Part shown: positions 8,472 to 38,331 of the stretch, piece by piece
Position numbering within the stretch: the stretch's first letter is position 1
Layout: every line of letters begins with the position of its first letter
Origin: a virus
Lineage: Duplodnaviria; Heunggongvirae; Uroviricota; Caudoviricetes
IMG/VR virus record: IMGVR_UViG_2877982868_000014
DNA: 64,000 nt
Reading direction: 5' to 3' (one strand)
The notes under the pieces: generated by a model
What the model was told of the DNA's origin: nothing
What the model saw: the letters and a program-made list of their open reading frames with translations, nothing else
Database searches by the model: none
Made by a program: the position numbers and the translations under genes

Positions 8472-8905
8472 TCCCCCTTCATATCAGCATAAAAAATCAT
8501 CGGATGTCTGCTTCCGTCCGGCAGGGTGATTTTCACGGAAAGCGAAAGGCGATCATGCCCCACACGCATGGCATGACATACCACGGATGTGGCAACACCG
8601 CTTTTATGCAGCCACGCCAGCGCTTCATCAGCATAGGCCTGTGCACGGCTGACCACGGAGGACAGCGTCTTTTCACGGCTTAACAGCCAGAGACGGGAGC
8701 CAATGGGGCGCTCCCGGAAACTGTCTCCCCACCATCCCCGACGGTCACGGGTGCCGTCAGGGATTTCATCGGAATCCAGCGCCCGCCTGTCCGTAAACAG
8801 TGAAATAATGACCGCAGTCAGCAGGCTGTTATCCGTCAGAAGATCTGCGCCGTTCAGTTGCAGGGAACCACAACCCTGATCCCAGACGACAGCAATATCA
8901 GCCAT
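8468..8905 (-). CDS. Baseplate protein (Mu gp46 / gpW-like)
   Basis: Start chosen at MADIAVVWDQ, which gives an 8-nt overlap with upstream gene; synteny. Confidence 0.7.
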   Translation of the reverse strand: MADIAVVWDQGCGSLQLNGADLLTDNSLLTAVIISLFTDRRALDSDEIPDGTRDRRGWWGDSFRERPIGSRLWLLSREKTLSSVVSRAQAYADEALAWLHKSGVATSVVCHAMRVGHDRLSLSVKITLPDGSRHPMIFYADMKGE

Positions 8906-28601: not shown

Positions 28602-28670
28602 ATCAGCCTCCGGTTCTCGCGTTCCCGGTAAGTTTAAAATAAAAATCCCGCGTTGTGGCGGGATTTGGGG

Positions 28671-29180
28671 TTAACGGGGAAGTGATTTTTCATACTGCCT
28701 GCAAACGGCGTCATACCCCATCAGCGTGCGTTCGGGCATTCCCATCGCGGCCAGCATTTTGCGGCGGTGCCATCGCTTGAGACGCTCCAGCACATCTGAG
28801 GCCAGGGCGGGGTGTTGCTCCAGCCACTGCCAGTTTGCCACACCTTCGCCGCCGTTTTGCGCGGCCGTCTGCGATTTCACCCAGCGGTTAAGGGCGGTTT
28901 CCGCACCATCAGAGATAAAGCCCTGCCGGTGCATCACCTTCCAGATGGCGCGAATTTTAGCGGTCACCGTACCCGGTTTTAAGGCCCGGTTAACCGGGTT
29001 CTGACGCACTTTAAAACCGCGTTTTTTGAAAACATCCAGCACGCGGGATAACTCATCCGGTGACATATCCCGGCAGCTGGTTTTGCCGGTGACCGCCAGT
29101 AGTACGGATGTGTAGGTTTCATCATCCAGGGCAAGCTCGCGTTTTGCCACATGAATGGCAGATATCAGTTTCCCTCTCAT
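28671..29180 (-). CDS. GemA-like regulatory protein (Mu gp16 family)
   Basis: 169 aa upstream of Mor/C as in Mu. Confidence 0.6.
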   Translation of the reverse strand: MRGKLISAIHVAKRELALDDETYTSVLLAVTGKTSCRDMSPDELSRVLDVFKKRGFKVRQNPVNRALKPGTVTAKIRAIWKVMHRQGFISDGAETALNRWVKSQTAAQNGGEGVANWQWLEQHPALASDVLERLKRWHRRKMLAAMGMPERTLMGYDAVCRQYEKSLPR

Positions 29181-29473
29181 GCTGTATCAACACTCCTGCG
29201 GATATGATAGGTATTATTTTCCCGATCGAGCTGAACCCGATACTCCGGAGGAATCACAAAAATATTAAAACCATCATCAGTTTTTATTCTTGAGTAGCAT
29301 TCCCCCTTATGATATCTGGCCAGTGCATTAATCAGAGAAGTCGCAGCCTGCCCAATCAGGTATTTTTTATGAAAAATACTGATAACTTTCCGGCACAGCC
29401 ATCGTGTAATGACGAATGCACCGAAAAAGGATGTGATATATAAATACCAGAACAACTGCGAACTACTGTCCAT
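29177..29473 (-). CDS. Hypothetical membrane protein (98 aa), low-GC accessory gene
   Basis: One TM helix (LFWYLYITSFFGAFVITRWL); overlaps gemA start by 4 nt. Confidence 0.5.
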   Translation of the reverse strand: MDSSSQLFWYLYITSFFGAFVITRWLCRKVISIFHKKYLIGQAATSLINALARYHKGECYSRIKTDDGFNIFVIPPEYRVQLDRENNTYHIRRSVDTA

Positions 29474-29660
29474 TATCTTTCTCCTTATTCAGTCTTCTGC
29501 GGCATTCGGCACAGTCATCAGGGCTTTCAAATGTATCCGGCTCGCGATTATGAGCCAGATATAACCACCGTCCACATATACTGATATTTTCGCCTGTTTT
29601 AAAAAAATGATGCTTCCTGGCCATTAGTGGCCGCGCCCATCCAGCGGGTAGACTATTCAT
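29463..29660 (-). CDS. Hypothetical small protein (65 aa)
   Basis: ORF in operon context, overlapping neighbours. Confidence 0.4.
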   Translation of the reverse strand: MNSLPAGWARPLMARKHHFFKTGENISICGRWLYLAHNREPDTFESPDDCAECRRRLNKEKDNGQ

Positions 29661-29988
29661 TTGCTTTATCCTCCATGCTGGACAGAATCATATGTATTAA
29701 TGTCGGGCGTGGAGATATACGCATTTCATTAAGCGTCTGAAGGGCAGCAACAGCTGCCTGTTTATCGGTGCCTTTGGCAATTTCAGCAAGAGAATGCACA
29801 ATCCATAATGGGCTTAACGCTACGGCTGAATGCAGAATCATGTCATCCATAATAATTTCTGGCATATCCCGTTTGTCACATTCTTTATCCATAAAAGAAA
29901 CGATTTTTTCTGCATCTTCCGGTTTCATGCCTCCGGCGATGAGAATTTTACGATATTCATAAGACGATCTTAATTCAATACTCATCAT
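29653..29988 (-). CDS. Hypothetical protein (111 aa)
   Basis: ORF in low-GC stretch of the early operon. Confidence 0.45.
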   Translation of the reverse strand: MMSIELRSSYEYRKILIAGGMKPEDAEKIVSFMDKECDKRDMPEIIMDDMILHSAVALSPLWIVHSLAEIAKGTDKQAAVAALQTLNEMRISPRPTLIHMILSSMEDKANE

Positions 29989-30000
29989 TCACCTGCCTGT

Positions 30001-30369
30001 TTAATCAGTTTCCAGTGCTTTGCTACGGGCAACAGCCTCACACTCAAAAAATACCGACTCCGGCACACGCTCCTTTAATTCACGAACAAGAAAATCATTA
30101 ACGAGTTCATGACGTCTTATATTTCTTTCCTTTTCCTCCTGGCGCAATACAGCAAGGCGGTATTCAACAGTCCGGCGTTGTTTCTGAAAGACAGCCAGTG
30201 CTTTTCTGGCAGAGTTACGCAATGTATCATCGCCACAGGGTTCGTATTCAAGCTGAAATTTAATCTCTTCAATGGTTTCTTTTATTTTTGCCAGCAAGCT
30301 AAGACAGTCGCTGATTGTCTTCAGTTTTTCATTATCAATATAACTTCTCACGCATTCACCTCCCGTCAT
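30001..30369 (-). CDS. Hypothetical charged helical protein (122 aa)
   Basis: Start MTGGECV overlaps upstream stop (ATGA). Confidence 0.5.
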   Translation of the reverse strand: MTGGECVRSYIDNEKLKTISDCLSLLAKIKETIEEIKFQLEYEPCGDDTLRNSARKALAVFQKQRRTVEYRLAVLRQEEKERNIRRHELVNDFLVRELKERVPESVFFECEAVARSKALETD

Positions 30370-30677
30370 TCCGGTAAAGCTGAAATATGGCACCAGTGCG
30401 TCACCTGTCCGTCCTCATCTTCAAGGCAGGCTCCGGTTTCTTCATCAATAAAAAAGCCTTCATACCCCATATGGCCGATGCGCAGTTCCTGTTGGTCACC
30501 ATACTGAACAATCAGCACGACAGCCTCCATATCAGGCGGGAAAGCATCATTCAGTGAATGCCAGGGATAACCGCGCAAATCCCCGAAATAAACACCGGTC
30601 AGCGTTCCGCCACAGACCGGCATTCCGACGGCACACACAAGGGGTTCATCTGATTCAACAAATAATGTCGTTATCAT
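30366..30677 (-). CDS. Strongly acidic small protein (103 aa), DNA-mimic candidate
   Basis: 18 Asp/Glu vs 2 Arg/Lys; ATGA coupling on both sides. Confidence 0.5.
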   Translation of the reverse strand: MITTLFVESDEPLVCAVGMPVCGGTLTGVYFGDLRGYPWHSLNDAFPPDMEAVVLIVQYGDQQELRIGHMGYEGFFIDEETGACLEDEDGQVTHWCHISALPE

Positions 30678-31225
30678 GGCATTAATTCCCGTAATACAAC
30701 ATCTTCGGCAGTCCGACGACGGTGATAAATAAAACTCACCGTGCCCTCGGATAATTCAAATTTCTCGCCGATTTCCCTAAAGGTAAGACGCCGTGGTGAT
30801 TCAGCATCCCGTAATTCACGAATAAGATGAACATCATCGTCAGGTATGCGGGTAAAAGGCAGTAATTCTCCGTATTTTTTCATGCTTACGCCAATATATC
30901 GCGCCCGATTGTGGACAGAATCCCGGTCTCGCCCCAGATATTCTCCTATTTGCTTACCGGTCATCGTCCTGGCATTTTTTCGGATAAATTTATCTTCATC
31001 AGGTTTAAATCTGAGGCGTTTGCATTTGAGCAACTCCGGGTAAGTACCGCGTAATAAAACAATCCGGTTATGTACACCCCAGAAACTTCTTTTTATCCTG
31101 ACAGCAATATCCTTAACCGGGGTGGATGGATAAAGCGCAATCAGCAGCGCATCTTCTTCAGGTGTCCATGCGCGAACATGAGCGGGTGCACGGCCTTTTC
31201 TCCCCATGGGTTGTAATTTCATCAT
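30674..31225 (-). CDS. Putative DNA-binding protein with Myb/SANT-like and HTH motifs (183 aa)
   Basis: WTPEEDALLIALY...WGVHNRI (Myb-like); LTFREIGEKFELSEGTVSFIY (HTH). Confidence 0.5.
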   Translation of the reverse strand: MMKLQPMGRKGRAPAHVRAWTPEEDALLIALYPSTPVKDIAVRIKRSFWGVHNRIVLLRGTYPELLKCKRLRFKPDEDKFIRKNARTMTGKQIGEYLGRDRDSVHNRARYIGVSMKKYGELLPFTRIPDDDVHLIRELRDAESPRRLTFREIGEKFELSEGTVSFIYHRRRTAEDVVLRELMP

Positions 31226-31228
31226 GCA

Positions 31229-31744
31229 TCACCCCCCGACTCGCTTTTCGGCAGCATAAAACTCATCAGACAGAATTTCGGTCATTTTCCGTTTTGCGGA
31301 ATCATCTTCGCACTGAAGGTAAATAACATCGTCAACGCAGAACCACTTCACGGGACCATGCAATATTGCTGAGAAGTCAATACCCAGCCAGAACAACAGT
31401 GCATCGGTTCTGGCATACGTGACGGGCGAATATTCACGCCACAGACTGTTAAGTTCGTCAGAGGCAACGCGCAGGGCTTTGGGAATACGTGATGTGCGCG
31501 GTGTGCAGCTCCAGCCATTCGACGCAGTCGGTTTTCGCCATAAGTCGCGATGAAAAGGATATTTGTCATCCATAAAGCGCAGCCCTTTAAAACAAAAGCC
31601 ACTGATACCGGATACAAATACCGACCGGCACGCAACATTCAGCACGGCCTCAAGGCGTTTTGCCTCATCCTTAACTTTCTGGCAGTCCTGCTGATATTTT
31701 TGCCACGCGGCCAGCGCGGAAGGGTTTGATGTTTTAAAGAACAT
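31229..31744 (-). CDS. Hypothetical protein (171 aa)
   Basis: ORF in early operon, 3-nt spacing to next gene. Confidence 0.5.
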   Translation of the reverse strand: MFFKTSNPSALAAWQKYQQDCQKVKDEAKRLEAVLNVACRSVFVSGISGFCFKGLRFMDDKYPFHRDLWRKPTASNGWSCTPRTSRIPKALRVASDELNSLWREYSPVTYARTDALLFWLGIDFSAILHGPVKWFCVDDVIYLQCEDDSAKRKMTEILSDEFYAAEKRVGG

Positions 31745-32277
31745 TACGCCACCTCCGCAGATATCCCGGCAGGTGCAGCCGTCCGGTCAACAATCAGGTA
31801 ACGCAGAACATGTTCGGTGATATTCCAGCCGCTTAAACCGCAGATAATGACACCCAGGCGAATGTCGATATACGCCATCACAAACTGGGGCACGCCTTCT
31901 TTCATGGCCTGCTCATCAACTTCAACCACCACATAAACGGTTTCGCAGGTCAGTACGCCCTGAGCAAATTCCCACGCCATCGACGGAATATCATGCCCCT
32001 CAATCCACGGCAGGGATTTTCTGAAGCTGCACCACTGAACATCATCAGCCGCACCTTCCTGGCTGCATTTGCGACGAACCGGCTGCACCGGGCGGGGACG
32101 CGGAATATCATAAAAACCGTTACATTCCGTCAGCACCCCGGCATCGACCGCATCACGCAAAAAATAAACCATCGAGGATGGCGGCATATTCATTTTTTCA
32201 GCCAGAATGCCGCAGGTCAGACGCCCGTAAATACTCAGCCAGTTTTTAACCCCTTCAAGCACTTTTGCATCAATCAT
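31744..32277 (-). CDS. Hypothetical protein (177 aa)
   Basis: ORF in early operon. Confidence 0.5.
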   Translation of the reverse strand: MIDAKVLEGVKNWLSIYGRLTCGILAEKMNMPPSSMVYFLRDAVDAGVLTECNGFYDIPRPRPVQPVRRKCSQEGAADDVQWCSFRKSLPWIEGHDIPSMAWEFAQGVLTCETVYVVVEVDEQAMKEGVPQFVMAYIDIRLGVIICGLSGWNITEHVLRYLIVDRTAAPAGISAEVA

Positions 32278-32280
32278 GAA

Positions 32281-32823
32281 TTATTCCTCCGTCAGCGCCA
32301 CATATTCAGAATGTTTAATTTCCTGGCATTCTTCAGGAATACACCCTTTTATTTCCCTGCCATAAGCGCCTACTTTAAACACCACGCACAGGGCATCACG
32401 GGAGAGCGACGGGGTCCACCAGGAGTCCGTGTTAAACATGGAGGGGATTCTCATTACCCCCAGCTTTTCACAGAGCCAGACAAGGAAATCAGGACGCTTT
32501 CTTAACTCGCGTTCAGCGGCTTCAATCATTGCGGCAATCGCCGGTCCTTCAGGGCATGACTCATCAGGTCTGGCAATAAAGCACGGTCCGTCCCCGATAA
32601 AAGCCACATCATCGCGCTTACGCCAGCCCGCAGGCAGAGCACCAGAAAAATAAAACTCACTGATTACGTCCATGGCAAACGGCTTTAAGCGCAATCCGGC
32701 AGCGCCTGTATTTTTCAGTAATGCCCGAAGAATACTGTTGCGTAGCGGTAAAACAGTCTGTTGATATTTGGTGAAATATTTATTTGTCTGCACACGGTCT
32801 AATTTGAAATAAAAATATGCCAT
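32281..32823 (-). CDS. Hypothetical protein (180 aa)
   Basis: First gene downstream of gam. Confidence 0.5.
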   Translation of the reverse strand: MAYFYFKLDRVQTNKYFTKYQQTVLPLRNSILRALLKNTGAAGLRLKPFAMDVISEFYFSGALPAGWRKRDDVAFIGDGPCFIARPDESCPEGPAIAAMIEAAERELRKRPDFLVWLCEKLGVMRIPSMFNTDSWWTPSLSRDALCVVFKVGAYGREIKGCIPEECQEIKHSEYVALTEE

Positions 32824-32920: not shown

Positions 32921-33451
32921 TTATTTATTCAGTCCGGCGTCCTGTTCAAAAGGCTCGACATAAAAACTTTCAGCGCCTTTATTCACCTTAATACCGGCAA
33001 TGCCTTTCACTGCATCCGGCTCCGCTAGGACCGCTTCCTTGTTCACTTCCTCTTTCGTGCGGATGAATCGCTCAAGCCCCATACGGCGCAGCATTTCAAT
33101 CACACCTTCCACATCACGGCTGACGCTGCATGATGGATTTCCCAGCCGCCATGACACTGTTCCGGTGGTCAGATTGGCTGTTTTGGTTTTGCCGCCGTTC
33201 GTCAGCTCATCGCGGTTGGTTTTGCACCAGTCCTGAATCCCCTTAAAAAGCACTTTGATTTCTTTTTTAAGGTTTTCAATCTGCGGCGTATAACGGGCGG
33301 TGATTTCTGCCACTTCATCATTCATCGCCGTTTCCAGCCGTAGCGCCTCTCGCTGAATATCGCCCAGGGTACGGATATCGCGGCTGACTTCTTCGCGGGT
33401 CTGCGGTGCAGCCTCGGCTGCGGCCTTTAATTTTGTAACACGTTTAGCCAT
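32921..33451 (-). CDS. gam: Gam host-nuclease inhibitor (Mu Gam family)
   Basis: 176 aa; ...DELTNGGKTKTANLTTGTVSWR...RFIRTKEEVNKEAVL... closely matches Mu Gam. Confidence 0.9.
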   Translation of the reverse strand: MAKRVTKLKAAAEAAPQTREEVSRDIRTLGDIQREALRLETAMNDEVAEITARYTPQIENLKKEIKVLFKGIQDWCKTNRDELTNGGKTKTANLTTGTVSWRLGNPSCSVSRDVEGVIEMLRRMGLERFIRTKEEVNKEAVLAEPDAVKGIAGIKVNKGAESFYVEPFEQDAGLNK

Positions 33452-33462
33452 TTTGTTTTTCC

Positions 33463-33756
33463 TTATTGCAGTGTGCCTGATGCTTTATGCACGCGGTGGC
33501 GTTTAATGATGGCATCCGCCCCAAAAGCCTGTACAGATGCCTGAAATTCCGCTGAGAGAAACTGAATAATTTCAGGACTGTGATACTGGAGAATACTTGC
33601 ATAAACGCCACAGAGTGACGTCGGCCTGTTATTCGTATCACGTTCTGTTTTTACATCCACACCAATCTTTTCATGCACTTCAACACAGTCATTGCCTGCC
33701 GGTTTTTCGTCATGCGAAACATGCTTAAATTCAAAAATAACGCGTACTTTGCTCAT
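33463..33756 (-). CDS. Small early protein, paralog A (97 aa)
   Basis: MSKVRVIFEFKH...; tandem paralog of next gene. Confidence 0.5.
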   Translation of the reverse strand: MSKVRVIFEFKHVSHDEKPAGNDCVEVHEKIGVDVKTERDTNNRPTSLCGVYASILQYHSPEIIQFLSAEFQASVQAFGADAIIKRHRVHKASGTLQ

Positions 33757-33760
33757 GGAA

Positions 33761-34033
33761 TTACCCCTGCTGATTAAATTCATTACCTTTAATAACCCCG
33801 GAACGCATGCTCATATCTTTCATGAGCGCACTGGCTTTCATTGCCACAAGTTCAGCAAAGTCTCTGCTTTCCGCGAGCATAACCACCCCAAAAATCATGG
33901 CGGGTCCATCACCTTTCTGCTTTATCCCGGTTGAACGTATGTCCAGACTTACCCCCATGCGCACTGTTCCATCAGCGTTTTTATGGATAACGTGCTCCTT
34001 GTATTCGAAAATAATGCGTACGACTTTACTCAC
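33761..34033 (-). CDS. Small early protein, paralog B (90 aa)
   Basis: MSKVVRIIFEYKEH... Confidence 0.5.
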   Translation of the reverse strand: MSKVVRIIFEYKEHVIHKNADGTVRMGVSLDIRSTGIKQKGDGPAMIFGVVMLAESRDFAELVAMKASALMKDMSMRSGVIKGNEFNQQG

Positions 34034-34311
34034 CCTCTGGTCCTCGTTCTGTTTGGATAACTGACCCGGCGTCTGACCTCACGGCAGAACCGAATCATGG
34101 CATTAAAGGCTTCTTCCTCCGTCACCGCTTCCGGTATCCCCGGAACCAGTAACTGCTCCTGTTCATCACGTCCATGACGCGCCATAACCTCAATCACATG
34201 CCGTACCGTGGCAGGCTTTCCGGCAACTATCGGCAATGCACCTTCCGGCAGGACGTAACCAAACTCAATAAGACCACTCGACCACGCCCATGCAATGAGA
34301 TTTTTTTTCAC
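34030..34311 (-). CDS. Hypothetical early protein (93 aa)
   Basis: ORF in early operon. Confidence 0.45.
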   Translation of the reverse strand: MKKNLIAWAWSSGLIEFGYVLPEGALPIVAGKPATVRHVIEVMARHGRDEQEQLLVPGIPEAVTEEEAFNAMIRFCREVRRRVSYPNRTRTRG

Positions 34312-34312
34312 C

Positions 34313-34579
34313 TCACACCTCCCAGTAAACCGTGCAGCCGCTGATGCGGGTGGCCTTCACACGGCGGCGCAGGCCGTTGGTCTGTATGGTGATTTCAATT
34401 TCACCGGTTCCCTGCACGTTGCCTACCGGCGGCGTGGTTTTCAGTGCAAAACGTTGCGGATAGCGCTTACTGCGTTCCAGTACCGCACCGGCAAGTTCGG
34501 TCAGACGGCGCGCGCTGTTCAGGGAGTCGAATAAATTCATTTTGTTACCGCAGGATTGCATATTCATATAACACCTCAT
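34313..34579 (-). CDS. Hypothetical early protein (88 aa; kil-position)
   Basis: ORF downstream of B. Confidence 0.4.
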   Translation of the reverse strand: MRCYMNMQSCGNKMNLFDSLNSARRLTELAGAVLERSKRYPQRFALKTTPPVGNVQGTGEIEITIQTNGLRRRVKATRISGCTVYWEV

Positions 34580-34807
34580 TTAGCTGACTTGTTTCGCACC
34601 AACAGAACGGCATATTCCGCTGTAAACGTCTGTCGCACCTTCGCGATCAAGTCCGGCAGATATCACCATTCGTGTGCGGTCATTAAATTCAAAAAGAAAA
34701 TCGCCACATTCTTTATTTTCGGCCAGTGAAATCACCTTCACGTTATCGAAATTAACCAGGTAAAAGCGTCCGTAAATATCAGGAATATTAAATACCGCCA
34801 TAATCAC
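34580..34807 (-). CDS. Hypothetical early protein (75 aa)
   Basis: Overlaps B stop. Confidence 0.4.
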   Translation of the reverse strand: MIMAVFNIPDIYGRFYLVNFDNVKVISLAENKECGDFLFEFNDRTRMVISAGLDREGATDVYSGICRSVGAKQVS

Positions 34808-35736
34808 ACCTGTGAGAGTAATTCAGGGTTGGTATAAACCTCTTTAAAGGCCGCATTAATATGTTTTTCTGTCAGCGCCGCGCCTTCACCGCTGGCGGTG
34901 AGCCACGCCTGGTTAAGCGTATGTGTCAGAACGCGTAACGCTCCCGGCTTTTCAGCGATAGCCTGCATGACGGCCAGCTCGGCCTCACCACTGATCCCCC
35001 ACGCCCTGGCAATGGCCAGCACATCCGCCTTTTTGGCCTTGCGAAGTTGTTTTGTACGGGCAAGACGGCTGAACAGGCGCGATAAATCATCAAAGGCGCG
35101 GCGTCCACCTTTAAACAATCCGCGCGGGTTACCAATAAGCACCATCCCGATCCCCGTGGCGTCCTGAATTGCCCGGAGTTGCTCCAGACCGTCAATACCA
35201 AGATGATCCGCCTCATCCACAATCACCAGTCCACGCGTTCCCATCAGGCGACGGCGGATGGCGCGGGATAATGCCCCTTTGTTCGCGCGGGTGTAATCAA
35301 TCCCCAGCGCATCGGCCAGCTCCAGCAGACACTCCGTGACGCTGGAGTGCGCGGGTGACAGGGTGATCATCCAGGTGTTTGGTTGCTCCTGGCAGTAATT
35401 ACGGGCAGTGGCCGTTTTACCCACACCCGGTACGCCCACAATAACGTTAATACAGCCCATCAGACGAACCGCCTGAAACAGTGCGCGCAGCTCCTGGACT
35501 GTCTGCGTTTCCACAAACTGCGGCGGTTCCGGCAGTGCGCTTTGTTTATTCCAGTTCTCATACCAGGAACGCAGGGAAGCAGCCACAGCAGCGTTATCGC
35601 CTTTATATTTTCCCTTACGGAAAGCCGATAATGTGCCGTCGGAAATTCCCGCCTCTCTGGCGATGGCATACTGCGTCAGTACGCCGCCATCAATAAGTTC
35701 ATCAATGGTCTTGATTACATCGTTAATATCAGTCAT
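34804..35736 (-). CDS. Transposition target-DNA activator B (MuB-like AAA+ ATPase)
   Basis: 310 aa; N-terminal HTH, Walker A GVPGVGKT, Walker B LVIVDEAD. Confidence 0.9.
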   Translation of the reverse strand: MTDINDVIKTIDELIDGGVLTQYAIAREAGISDGTLSAFRKGKYKGDNAAVAASLRSWYENWNKQSALPEPPQFVETQTVQELRALFQAVRLMGCINVIVGVPGVGKTATARNYCQEQPNTWMITLSPAHSSVTECLLELADALGIDYTRANKGALSRAIRRRLMGTRGLVIVDEADHLGIDGLEQLRAIQDATGIGMVLIGNPRGLFKGGRRAFDDLSRLFSRLARTKQLRKAKKADVLAIARAWGISGEAELAVMQAIAEKPGALRVLTHTLNQAWLTASGEGAALTEKHINAAFKEVYTNPELLSQV

Positions 35737-35807: not shown

Positions 35808-37898
35808 TCAGGCCAGCGGGTCATTTTCTTTTAATTTCGCTTCCAGCAACTGCAATCCCCGCTGGAAATTACGCTCGTATTCTTCATCAGGTTCATCGTC
35901 AGCGACCGGTTGCTGAACGGTCACCGTATTACCCACAGGGCGGTATATGTTTTCCAGCCAGGGCTCCTGCGGCTTGTGCTCCAGCACGTTGACAACCTCA
36001 TCCTCGGCATCACGGATTTTTTCCTCTGCGCGTTTACGCATGCCTTTAAGGCGTTGCTGCTGTTTGTAGTATTCCGCGCTAACCGGGAAGGCTTCGCGTT
36101 TATTACCGTCCCATACCGCCTCGCAAATCACGCTGCCATCCAGGCGACGTACGGTAATTCGTTCGGCATCATGAATGTCATAGCTGATAAGCACCTTACG
36201 ACCATGCTCGTCACGCAGCTCGGGCGCGTAGTAAATATTATTCAGCCAGCGTATTTCACAGCGTCTTACAGGGCGTTCCACCATCGGCCGGAACATATCC
36301 CGCAGCTCAACATCGGACAGCCATTCAATTTCCGTGTCCTCTTCCGCCAGGCGTTTTTTTCTGAACTCCGCCGGGCTGTAATGCTTGCCGTTCGGCTTCA
36401 CCGGTAATTCATCGTGCGGCCGGTTGTTGTACCACTCAACACCGTCACGAATGGCATCAATCAGTTCAGACCAGGACGGTAAATCACGCATCGCTGACTG
36501 CTGCCGGGCGTTCAGCCGTTTGCCCTGTTGCAGGGCAGTAAATGCCGAGCGTAAATCGCGGTTGGTTTTGCGTAACGTCTCGCGATCTGCACCTTTCCCG
36601 AAATAGGTGCGGTATTTACGGGCTATGCGCATCGGTAATGTGCGGTTAAGCCGTTCGATAATGCCTCGTCCCTGCGGATTACCGGCAATCCCGGTCGGGT
36701 GATTAATCCCCAGTCGCGGCAGTATCCCCACAACCTCCTTATCCAGGATGTCGGCGGTTTCCCCGGAGCCGTTATCCGAGTAATACAGAAACGGTTTGCC
36801 GTGATGGCGAATGCCGTGCTGTATGGCACCGGCTACGGCGAAAACATTTTCAGCCAGGTCAAGGCTCCAGCCCACCACAAAGCGCGTGCCACCGTCGATA
36901 ACAAAGGTCACTTCCGGTGCAAATGGCCGACCGTGAACCGGGTGTGCGCATTTCAGCTTCATGCCGTGACCGTCACCAATCCAGACATAATTCACCGGCA
37001 TTCTGGACCAGTCGCGGCGCGTGAATCCCTCAAGCTGGCGGTATTCACTGCCGGTCACCCGGCCTTTTTGTTTCACCACTTCCGGCAGTTTCTTCATTGC
37101 GCGGCGAATGGTGTCATAAGACGGCATGATATCGAGCATATAAGGCTCATCAGCGTGCCGGTGCTGCCATTCAGCGACAAAATCCTCGTAAGCCTCGGTC
37201 ATTGGTCGGCCGTTTGACTGGCGATACTGCGCCAGAAATTCGGGCAGCCAGTTAATATCTTCGGCTTTTATTTCCTGGCGCTTACCCGGTGCCAGTAAAA
37301 GCAGGCGTTCAGCGGCGTTCTGCGCCTTGTTAAAGGCCGCAATCCAGCGTTTCAGCGTTATTTCACTCAACGCACGGCTGTTTCCCTTTTTGGCGTTCGC
37401 CGTCTCAACCATTGCCACAATGCGCTCGTCCAGTTGCGAACGTGCCAGGTTGTCAACGATAAACCGGATAGCTTTCGCACAGCTGAAACCGGGTTGTTGC
37501 GCGACTTTCATCACTTCGCTGACGATCGCAATTCGTGCATCAGCCACCTGGCGCTGGTTTTCAGTCAGGGCATTAAGGCGTTCAACCATCAGTTGTGGTG
37601 ATCCGCGATATGCCTCCACCGCATCAACCACGGCAGGCGAGCGTCTGGCCTTTGTCACCACCGGAGCCGGTGATTCATCAGCTTTTTGCGTCATCAGTTG
37701 AAGGGCATAACGTTCACGCAATACTTGTTGCGCGCCAGAAGGCAAACAATCGATATTAAATTCGATTGCTTTTGTCCCCTTACGTTTGCGTAACATGGCT
37801 GCATTTCCCGCAGCTGCTTTTGTGAGTCGATGGCGAATGTTATGTTCCATCATTGGTAAATCAGGAAGACCAACACATTCTTTTGCTGTTACCCACAT
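35808..37898 (-). CDS. DDE transposase A (MuA-like)
   Basis: 696 aa; MWVTAKECVGLPDLP N-terminus like MuA; between ner and B. Confidence 0.9.
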   Translation of the reverse strand: MWVTAKECVGLPDLPMMEHNIRHRLTKAAAGNAAMLRKRKGTKAIEFNIDCLPSGAQQVLRERYALQLMTQKADESPAPVVTKARRSPAVVDAVEAYRGSPQLMVERLNALTENQRQVADARIAIVSEVMKVAQQPGFSCAKAIRFIVDNLARSQLDERIVAMVETANAKKGNSRALSEITLKRWIAAFNKAQNAAERLLLLAPGKRQEIKAEDINWLPEFLAQYRQSNGRPMTEAYEDFVAEWQHRHADEPYMLDIMPSYDTIRRAMKKLPEVVKQKGRVTGSEYRQLEGFTRRDWSRMPVNYVWIGDGHGMKLKCAHPVHGRPFAPEVTFVIDGGTRFVVGWSLDLAENVFAVAGAIQHGIRHHGKPFLYYSDNGSGETADILDKEVVGILPRLGINHPTGIAGNPQGRGIIERLNRTLPMRIARKYRTYFGKGADRETLRKTNRDLRSAFTALQQGKRLNARQQSAMRDLPSWSELIDAIRDGVEWYNNRPHDELPVKPNGKHYSPAEFRKKRLAEEDTEIEWLSDVELRDMFRPMVERPVRRCEIRWLNNIYYAPELRDEHGRKVLISYDIHDAERITVRRLDGSVICEAVWDGNKREAFPVSAEYYKQQQRLKGMRKRAEEKIRDAEDEVVNVLEHKPQEPWLENIYRPVGNTVTVQQPVADDEPDEEYERNFQRGLQLLEAKLKENDPLA

Positions 37899-38175: not shown

Positions 38176-38331
38176 TGTGTGATCCTCTCATGTTTACCTG
38201 AACCGATAATCAAAACCGGTTATCGATTTAGGTAAATCATAATCGCAAAATAATTCGATATCAACGGTTTTTTGCGAGCATATCGAAATTAAATGCGATG
38301 TCGATAATTTCTTTGTTTTATAGGGGGTTAT
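38176..38331. promoter_or_regulatory. Divergent early/repressor promoter-operator region with TATCGA-type repeats
   Basis: Repeats CCGATAATC, TTATCGATTT, AATTCGATATC, ATATCGAAAT, GTCGATAATT between ner and c. Confidence 0.5.

Follow-up and report, generated by a model that had tools for sequence, protein, structure and literature searches.

Skeleton and optional genes between gam and gemA: a probable semi-essential early region in an Sp18-type Mu-like prophage of Escherichia coli

We analyzed a stretch of viral DNA of 64,000 nucleotides (IMG/VR record IMGVR_UViG_2877982868_000014; hereafter, the window) that carries a Mu-like prophage of Escherichia coli. Between the gam and gemA genes of this prophage, nine open reading frames (ORFs) on the minus strand occupy positions 29177-32823 (3.65 kb). 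Together they probably form the distal half of a region of the type called "semi-essential early" (SE), or accessory, in an Sp18-type prophage, where a skeleton of constant genes is interleaved with optional ones. The optional small genes have no predicted promoters of their own above chance level and are gained or lost whole within a tightly coupled block on one strand. The kind of region is known, and the gene set is new.

The window was 100% identical to the chromosome of the Shiga-toxin-producing E. coli (STEC) strain 2010C-3347 (NZ_CP034806.1). On the minus strand, repressor-like and ner-like helix-turn-helix (HTH) genes are followed by A (35808-37898), B (34804-35736), five small ORFs, and gam; the nine ORFs come next, and then gemA, mor, and the lysozyme/lysis and morphogenesis genes. 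The block is positioned as in a Mu-type SE region, that is, on one strand, between A/B and the middle/late activators, and bounded by gam and gemA. Its counterpart in the Sakai strain carries the annotation "prophage Sp18, Mu-like phage", and ORF1 is 99.4% identical to that feature. Judged from its sequence, this is a Mu-like prophage of the Sp18 type. Prophages of this type occur mostly in Shiga-toxin producers and can insert into Shiga toxin (Stx) phages. When 5426 complete E. coli genomes were searched, 233 matched some part of the region. Sp18 was described with the Sakai genome; it was predicted to be intact, and its DNA was packaged (PMC2669165).

The gam-gemA interval was compared among Sakai and six relatives sampled from E. 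coli. The number of genes from gam to gemA in this set was 5, 6, 8, 8, 8, 8, and 11. ORF2, ORF3, ORF4, and a protein of the ORF9 family were constant, being found in each of the eight E. coli relatives that were examined closely, and ORF1, ORF5, ORF6, and the pair of ORF7 and ORF8 were optional; the relatives had two further optional genes, one for a double-hydrophobic peptide of 61 aa and one for an acidic protein of 75 aa. The window form corresponds to the 11-gene form (locus L003) minus approximately 390 bp containing the 61-aa and 75-aa genes, a difference of one insertion or deletion (indel) at an ATGA junction. Similarly, the Sakai form is the 11-gene form minus approximately 890 bp containing the 75-aa gene, ORF5, and ORF6, again by one indel. 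The breakpoints coincided with gene starts or fell a few bases away, mostly at ATGA start/stop overlaps; therefore, whole genes were added or removed, and the neighboring ORFs stayed intact and closely spaced.

Furthermore, we scanned IMG/VR with an alignment of gp11, the family of ORF2, which served as the anchor for finding related intervals. The scan yielded 72 loci, and together with the reference loci, 58 complete gam-gemA intervals were obtained. These were 1.0-5.1 kb long, contained 1-12 ORFs, and fell into 31 architectures. With 3.74 kb and nine genes, the interval of the window is in the upper range and is not the largest. A first-pass annotation of the window had described the block as a nine-gene expansion of the Mu-like early region and had proposed that alignment to other Mu-like prophages would define a variable cassette. 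Such a cassette was indeed found, with 5-11 genes in the E. coli relatives and 31 architectures among the 58 loci. An expansion is not established by these counts, as the nine-gene form lies within the range of its relatives (5-11 genes, and 1-12 in IMG/VR) and is separated from the 11-gene form by a single indel of approximately 390 bp.

The largest variant, L056 (IMGVR_UViG_2757320580_000003, interval 3708-8850), held 12 ORFs in 5.1 kb. Four of these ORFs (192, 150, 104, and 166 aa) had no counterpart in the window, and a Pfam search of the four gave no credible match and one weak sub-threshold hit. One of them had a MazG-like look, for which Pfam found nothing.

The nine ORFs and the features that flank them are listed in Table 1. 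RefSeq/PGAP called the same nine coding sequences in NZ_CP034806.1, the identical record, and each ORF matched a PHROG family (E = 4e-34 to 9e-106), which argues that the nine are genuine genes and not chance ORFs. Short gaps separate ORF1 from ORF2 (3 nt), ORF3 from ORF4 (3 nt), and ORF6 from ORF7 (12 nt). Overlaps join ORF2 to ORF3 (1 nt), ORF4 to ORF5 (4 nt, ATGA), ORF7 to ORF8 (8 nt), ORF8 to ORF9 (11 nt), and ORF9 to gemA (4 nt, ATGA); the ORF5/ORF6 junction is either a 4-nt ATGA overlap or a 14-nt gap, depending on the choice of the ORF6 start. The coordinates, the PGAP calls, the PHROG matches, and the junction distances thus agree with the first-pass annotation, which had reported nine back-to-back ORFs of 65-183 aa tightly linked by short overlaps and gaps, several of them ATGA.

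Table 1 Features of the nine-ORF block and its flanks (positions in the window).
Feature	Position	Strand	Size or description
Pe-like sigma-70 promoter	38236-38264	minus	TTGATA-17-TATGAT, 10/12 matches; consensus scan
gam (upstream boundary gene)	32921-33451	minus	57% identity to Mu Gam; PGAP: host-nuclease inhibitor Gam family
ORF1	32281-32823	minus	180 aa
ORF2	31744-32277	minus	177 aa
ORF3	31229-31744	minus	171 aa
ORF4	30674-31225	minus	183 aa
ORF5	30366-30677	minus	103 aa
ORF6	30001-30351/30369/30393	minus	116/122/130 aa; start ambiguous
ORF7	29653-29988	minus	111 aa
ORF8	29463-29660	minus	65 aa
ORF9	29177-29473	minus	98 aa
gemA (downstream boundary gene)	28671-29180	minus	Pfam GemA, E = 2e-30; 43% identity to Mu GemA
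Terminator-like hairpin	28643-28666	minus	9-bp stem and T-run, directly 3' of the gemA stop codon; consensus scan only

The GC contents of ORF7, ORF9, ORF6, ORF4, and ORF8 were 40.2%, 40.4%, 41.6%, 45.7%, and 46.0%, respectively, compared with 56.3% for gemA, 56.3% for the lysozyme gene, 53.8% for the whole window, and 55-60% for the backbone. The AT-richness of the 29.2-30.4 kb part against a GC-rich backbone, on which the first-pass annotation had remarked, was thus confirmed (40-46% GC in the distal ORFs and at least 56% in gemA and the late genes). The proposal built on it, that the block is recent cargo, was not substantiated: across 120-215 complete E. coli genomes, the AT-rich genes show 95-100% identity, and ORF5 has Salmonella homologues of approximately 80% identity. 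A similar GC dip is also present in the small early genes of Mu itself, which weakens the case for recent AT-rich cargo.

Among the skeleton genes, ORF2 was present in every E. coli variant examined. It is 67% identical to Mu gp11 over its full length and matched the Pfam family Gp11_C (PF25754, E = 3.5e-40) and phrog_1949. ORF3, which is 53% identical to Mu gp12 (phrog_2314, E = 9e-83), was constant across the Sp18-type variants of E. coli and is absent from some Muvirus and IMG/VR relatives. ORF4 was constant across all E. coli variants. Its product is basic, with an isoelectric point (pI) of 10.1, and contains three HTH/Myb-like segments; it matched phrog_323 ("transcriptional regulator, D5-like", E = 2e-58), with sub-matches at residues 2-56, 75-116, and 141-166, and gave weak Pfam matches to Sigma70_r4, AsnC-HTH, HTH_11, and Myb. 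PGAP names it differently from record to record (AsnC family, DNA-binding, or SANT/Myb-like). ORF4 is thereby predicted to be a DNA-binding protein. Its last two-thirds align to Mu gp9 (32% identity, E = 3e-8), which has two HTH-like segments and is encoded upstream of gam in Mu. Since no gp9 homologue was found upstream of gam in this prophage, ORF4 is the relocated and extended counterpart of gp9.

ORF9 (phrog_17269) directly precedes gemA, which it overlaps at an ATGA, in each of the eight E. coli relatives; it was seen only within Sp18-like elements. The protein shows an N-terminal hydropathy peak, and the hydrophobic segment (residues 11-29), which was invariant in seven variants, is likely a transmembrane segment. 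For the C-terminal part, there are two alleles, with approximately 50% identity overall. The idea that all nine ORFs are cargo does not stand, as ORF2 is gp11, ORF3 is gp12, and ORF4 is of the gp9 type, and ORF1 and ORF7 have homologues in phage SfMu.

The optional genes begin with ORF1, which encodes a "DUF5420"-type protein (phrog_2260, E = 6e-75) that is 40% identical to SfMu gp11 (DUF5420) and occupies the equivalent position. It was found in 214 of 5426 E. coli genomes and was missing from L004 and L008. The AlphaFold model of ORF1 was confident, with an alpha/beta fold, a predicted local distance difference test (pLDDT) score of 88, and a predicted template modeling (pTM) score of 0.80. 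When the model was compared with the PDB using Foldseek, no solved relative was found (best E = 0.21). In BFVD, it matched only three unnamed viral proteins, with template modeling (TM) scores of approximately 0.7. The protein may represent a fold without a solved relative, and its activity may be new. Foldseek matches of the MutS-domain and MotA type were scattered, with TM scores of 0.25 or less, and were judged not meaningful. The suggestion in the SfMu paper that this protein and gp12 might be divergent homologues, which would make it a distant paralogue, was not supported: BLASTP found nothing, and hhalign gave a probability of 2.4% (E = 0.019).

ORF5 (phrog_6925) encodes a strongly acidic protein (pI 4.05; net charge of approximately -16). 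Among 5.8 billion proteins, its homologues formed only 16 clusters, each of which came from E. coli or Salmonella, and in phage records it was found inside Sp18-like inserts only; the Sakai/O157 type does not have it. The AlphaFold 2 model was all-beta and poor (pLDDT 57.5), and a permissive Pfam run (E <= 10) linked no family to the protein. DUF551, which had been suggested by the C-terminus, found no support in that run. The acidity would fit a DNA mimic; this candidate was set aside with a shallow homologue set of 16 clusters and an unusable model. One homologue of 137 aa (P0014) shares the first approximately 47 residues with ORF5 and continues into an unrelated C-terminal region, which suggests domain shuffling in the ORF5 family.

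ORF6 (phrog_6158) encodes a helical or coiled-coil-like protein. Homologues of approximately 40% identity occur in unrelated temperate phages, namely the coliphages Fraca, SaltyDalty, and Fostie and the Aeromonas phage AsXd-1; in Fraca, the homologue adjoins xis/int in the early operon. A set of 1.84 billion representative proteins contained only 23 clusters of the family, and its profile gave no real match when compared with the PDB and Pfam; matches to Abraxas and other coiled-coil proteins were spurious. ORF5 and ORF6 were present together in 144 of the 233 carrier genomes. At family position W44, ORF6 has Leu, whereas Trp is found in at least 90% of family members, one of them a homologue of 93% identity; the ORF6 of the window may be a weakened allele.

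ORF7 (phrog_1988) encodes an acidic protein, likely helical by sequence, which is 34% identical to SfMu gp14 and also has homologues in Yersinia Muviruses, at the equivalent position. Its homologues formed 13 clusters, all from E. coli, one of which was labelled "HEAT repeat domain-containing". ORF8 encodes a small Cys/His protein that matched phrog_2358 (E = 4e-34) over the first 67 of 146 profile positions only. A tblastn search with ORF8 gave 325 phage records, mostly of Pseudomonas Pbunavirus at approximately 45% identity and all "hypothetical". ORF7 and ORF8 are gained and lost as a pair; they were found in 215 of 5426 genomes, and ORF7 is absent from L007 and L008. A small Cys-rich protein of approximately 60-65 aa adjoins a protein of approximately 100-110 aa in the window (29463-29988), in SfMu (L009, 4958-5450), and in Mu (L001, 7471-7957), the order being ORF7 then ORF8 in the window and gp13 then gp14 in both SfMu and Mu. 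Homology among the small Cys-rich proteins of the three was not detectable, and the arrangement may be a recurring two-gene module.

Searches of the nine ORFs against Pfam, NCBIfam, PADLOC, and PDB sequences gave nothing beyond Gp11_C for ORF2 and the weak HTH matches for ORF4. The hits in PADLOC-DB were at chance level only (E >= 0.02). As for the PHROG labels, ORF4 alone fell into a functional category, that of transcription regulation, and none of the nine was in the host-takeover category. None of the proteins had been recognized at first reading, and the hidden Markov model (HMM) and sequence searches, as well as the structure search with ORF1, likewise gave no known function. Six diagnostic peptides, from ORF1 and ORF5-ORF9, did not occur in the supplements of two papers of Silas et al., and a literature search on the Sakai locus tags returned one incidental mention only.

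Regarding transcription, the Pe-like promoter lies in the spacer that separates the repressor-like gene from the ner-like gene, which form a divergent HTH pair according to the PGAP annotation, and is presumed to be the start of the early transcript. Inside the block, promoter-like and terminator-like matches in the consensus scan were no commoner than in shuffled sequence, and an Rfam scan of 27-40 kb matched no RNA family. With a Pe-like promoter upstream, a hairpin after gemA, and no internal signals above chance, all as consensus matches, it is reasonable to expect, as the first-pass annotation had, that the nine genes ride the early transposase transcript. The operon would begin at the Pe-like promoter, take in the transposase genes (A and B), gam, and the block, and end at the hairpin after gemA. 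Induction or infection would switch the block on at once, and lysogens would express it weakly if Pe is as leaky as that of Mu. The skeleton proteins would have regulatory or DNA-handling roles for the phage, and the optional AT-rich genes would act on the host through takeover, surface or superinfection barriers, or counter-defence, and not in transposition or morphogenesis. The gemA and mor genes are 69 nt apart (28602-28670), with the hairpin in between, whereas those of Mu overlap by 4 nt; therefore, the early/middle boundary may sit differently in Sp18-type phages.

Several observations were also made around the block. Upstream of gam, two adjoining small ORFs (33463-34033, minus strand; 106 and 90 aa) are weak paralogues with 33% identity over 55 aa; the first of these belongs to phrog_2230, a family that Mu gp7 (gnarl2) matches weakly (E = 0.009). 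The ORF at 34030-34311 (minus strand) matched phrog_1518 ("host nuclease inhibitor"), which is in the host-takeover category, and that at 34313-34579 (minus strand) is Kil-like (phrog_2679). At its repressor end (from approximately 39.2-39.8 kb onward; L002, 30210-35051), the prophage borders on a DUF5682 gene that is truncated and lies near yehP/yehQ, where yehQ is split by IS1203, and the GC content rises from approximately 40% to 55% at approximately 39.2 kb. Two places in the NZ_CP034806.1 chromosome matched the region, so that this strain has a second Mu-like copy or fragment.

We considered other explanations for the block. Its early position near gam, whose product is itself a RecBCD antagonist, would suit recently acquired, AT-rich anti-defence cargo, that is, early inhibitors of restriction-modification or other immunity. 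The low GC content of ORF6-ORF9 (40-46%, against 55-60% in the backbone), the variability of ORF1 and ORF5-ORF8, and the high acidity of ORF5, which resembles that of some DNA-mimic inhibitors, agree with this explanation, and Silas et al. picked the same Mu interval as a candidate counter-defence region. Nevertheless, we regard it as unlikely. No homology to known anti-defence families appeared in the searches run, conserved genes of Mu or SfMu account for three to five of the nine, and the AT-rich genes, with the near-identity and the Salmonella homologues mentioned above, are spread over many serotypes. In addition, the small early genes of Mu are GC-poor too, the ORF5 model is too poor to judge the DNA-mimic idea, and Mu gp13-15 received no name or function in what is accessible of the published screen. 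An anti-defence role would be a prior expectation with no homology behind it. Another explanation is that the optional genes mainly benefit the lysogen: expressed by leaky early transcription, they would exclude superinfecting phages, modify the envelope or O-antigen, or protect the cell in another way. The hydrophobic N-terminus of ORF9 and the strongly hydrophobic product of the 61-aa gene of the relatives (KD19 2.92) point in this direction, as does Mup07/gnarl2, which affects the O-antigen barrier and is the sole Mu SE gene with a phenotype in the accessible account of the screen. Low-level Pe/Pe* transcription over the SE region in Mu lysogens has also been reported, with a suggested host benefit of some SE genes (PMC3820752). 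However, the c-type repressor should silence the operon in lysogens, no independent promoter above chance was detected inside the block, and there were no PADLOC hits above chance level; a main benefit to the lysogen thus seems quite improbable.

Lastly, all nine genes might be ordinary core early genes for regulation or as helpers of replication and transposition, with the variation reflecting decay in defective prophages. The constancy of ORF2, ORF3, ORF4, and ORF9 in the E. coli relatives compared, the predicted DNA-binding nature of ORF4, and the fact that the variants can be derived from the 11-gene form by simple deletions are compatible with this idea. The pattern of the indels is not that of random decay, however, as they span entire genes, end at start/stop junctions, and spare the neighbors, which stay closely spaced, and the eight-gene Sakai Sp18 was predicted to be intact and had its DNA packaged (PMC2669165). 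Moreover, Mu is entirely without ORF1 and ORF5-ORF9, and functional Muviruses (Mu, SfMu, and the Yersinia phages) differ in content here. We therefore consider this explanation very unlikely.

The reading of the segment as an SE region of skeleton and optional genes also accommodates the accessory character of the latter, which have low GC content and, for ORF6 and ORF8, homologues in unrelated phages, where the surrounding small genes are unannotated or of an accessory type. Some points weigh against it. The division into constant and optional genes is derived from Sp18-type relatives in E. coli, and distant relatives are without gp12 and ORF4. Transcription from Pe and termination after gemA would follow from consensus matches and from analogy to Mu. 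None of the ORFs was similar to known anti-defence, host-takeover, or defence proteins in Pfam, NCBIfam, PADLOC, PHROG, or PDB sequences. Finally, Mu gp13, gp14, and gp15, which belong to the same interval, were screened, and the accessible part of the report assigns no name or function to them (bioRxiv 10.1101/2023.04.06.535777).

It is possible, though we propose this only tentatively, that at least one optional gene encodes a new host-directed effector acting in counter-defence, barrier modification, or superinfection exclusion, or, separately, that ORF1 has a new activity. Candidate effectors would be the acidic ORF5, the ORF6 family with its members in unrelated temperate phages, the ORF7/ORF8 pair, and the putatively membrane-anchored ORF9 with its two C-terminal alleles. 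What is gained here is a map of skeleton and optional genes; no new mechanism is involved, and specialists of Mu or prophages would find nothing surprising in it. The Sp18-type prophage is present in approximately 4% of complete E. coli genomes, and the slot offers approximately 10 small uncharacterized genes with presence/absence contrasts, a handy panel for screens of takeover, superinfection exclusion, and counter-defence.

The closest known system is Sakai Sp18 (ECs_4953-ECs_4959 and ECs_5772). The DNA of ORF1-ORF4 is 99.4% identical between the two elements and that of ORF7-ORF9 95.6%, and Sakai Sp18 has ORF7, ORF8, an ORF9 allele, gam, and gemA in the same order and with the same junctions. 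It differs from the window in that the gene for the 61-aa hydrophobic peptide replaces ORF5 and ORF6 (eight genes versus nine) and in that it carries the other ORF9 allele. The SE region of Mu (Mup11-Mup15) shares with the window the position between gam and gemA in the Pe early operon, which for the window is a predicted one, the gp11 and gp12 homologues, and the presence of small, largely uncharacterized genes with a GC dip. The SE genes of Mu have been described as transcribed from Pe, even in lysogens at a low level, and as "largely uncharacterized" (PMC3820752). Mu is, in contrast, without ORF1 and ORF5-ORF9, and its gp13, gp14, and reverse-strand gp15 have no homologue in the window. The gp9-type HTH gene is upstream of gam in Mu, whereas in the window it lies downstream of the gp12 gene and has an extra repeat. 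The gam-gemA interval of Mu is 1.9 kb, as against 3.65 kb here; it contains gp11-gp14 and the reverse-strand gp15, so that the earlier remark that Mu carries only a few small genes at this position is roughly right. Homologues of ORF1 and ORF7 are found at equivalent positions in SfMu and in the Yersinia Muviruses, vB_YpM_3 among them. Unlike the window, these phages have no homologue of ORF4 (at this place), ORF5, ORF6, ORF8, or ORF9 and keep gp13 and gp14 of the Mu type. The SfMu paper had already reported that gp11 and gp14 of SfMu are absent from Mu and D108.

In 2023, Silas et al. described accessory regions as variable gene slots with conserved flanks that are enriched for counter-defence and host-modifying genes (bioRxiv 10.1101/2023.04.06.535777). 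In that preprint, Mup05-Mup16 of Mu are listed as such a region; Mup06, 07, 08, 13, 14, and 15 were screened, and of these only Mup07 is named in the accessible part (gnarl2, O-antigen barrier). The accessory-region idea has thus already been published for Mu. The proteins of the window, as judged from the six diagnostic peptides, were not found in the sequence tables of the screen, in which respect the window differs from those regions. It resembles them in its conserved flanks, gam and gemA, and in a gene content that varies between close relatives.

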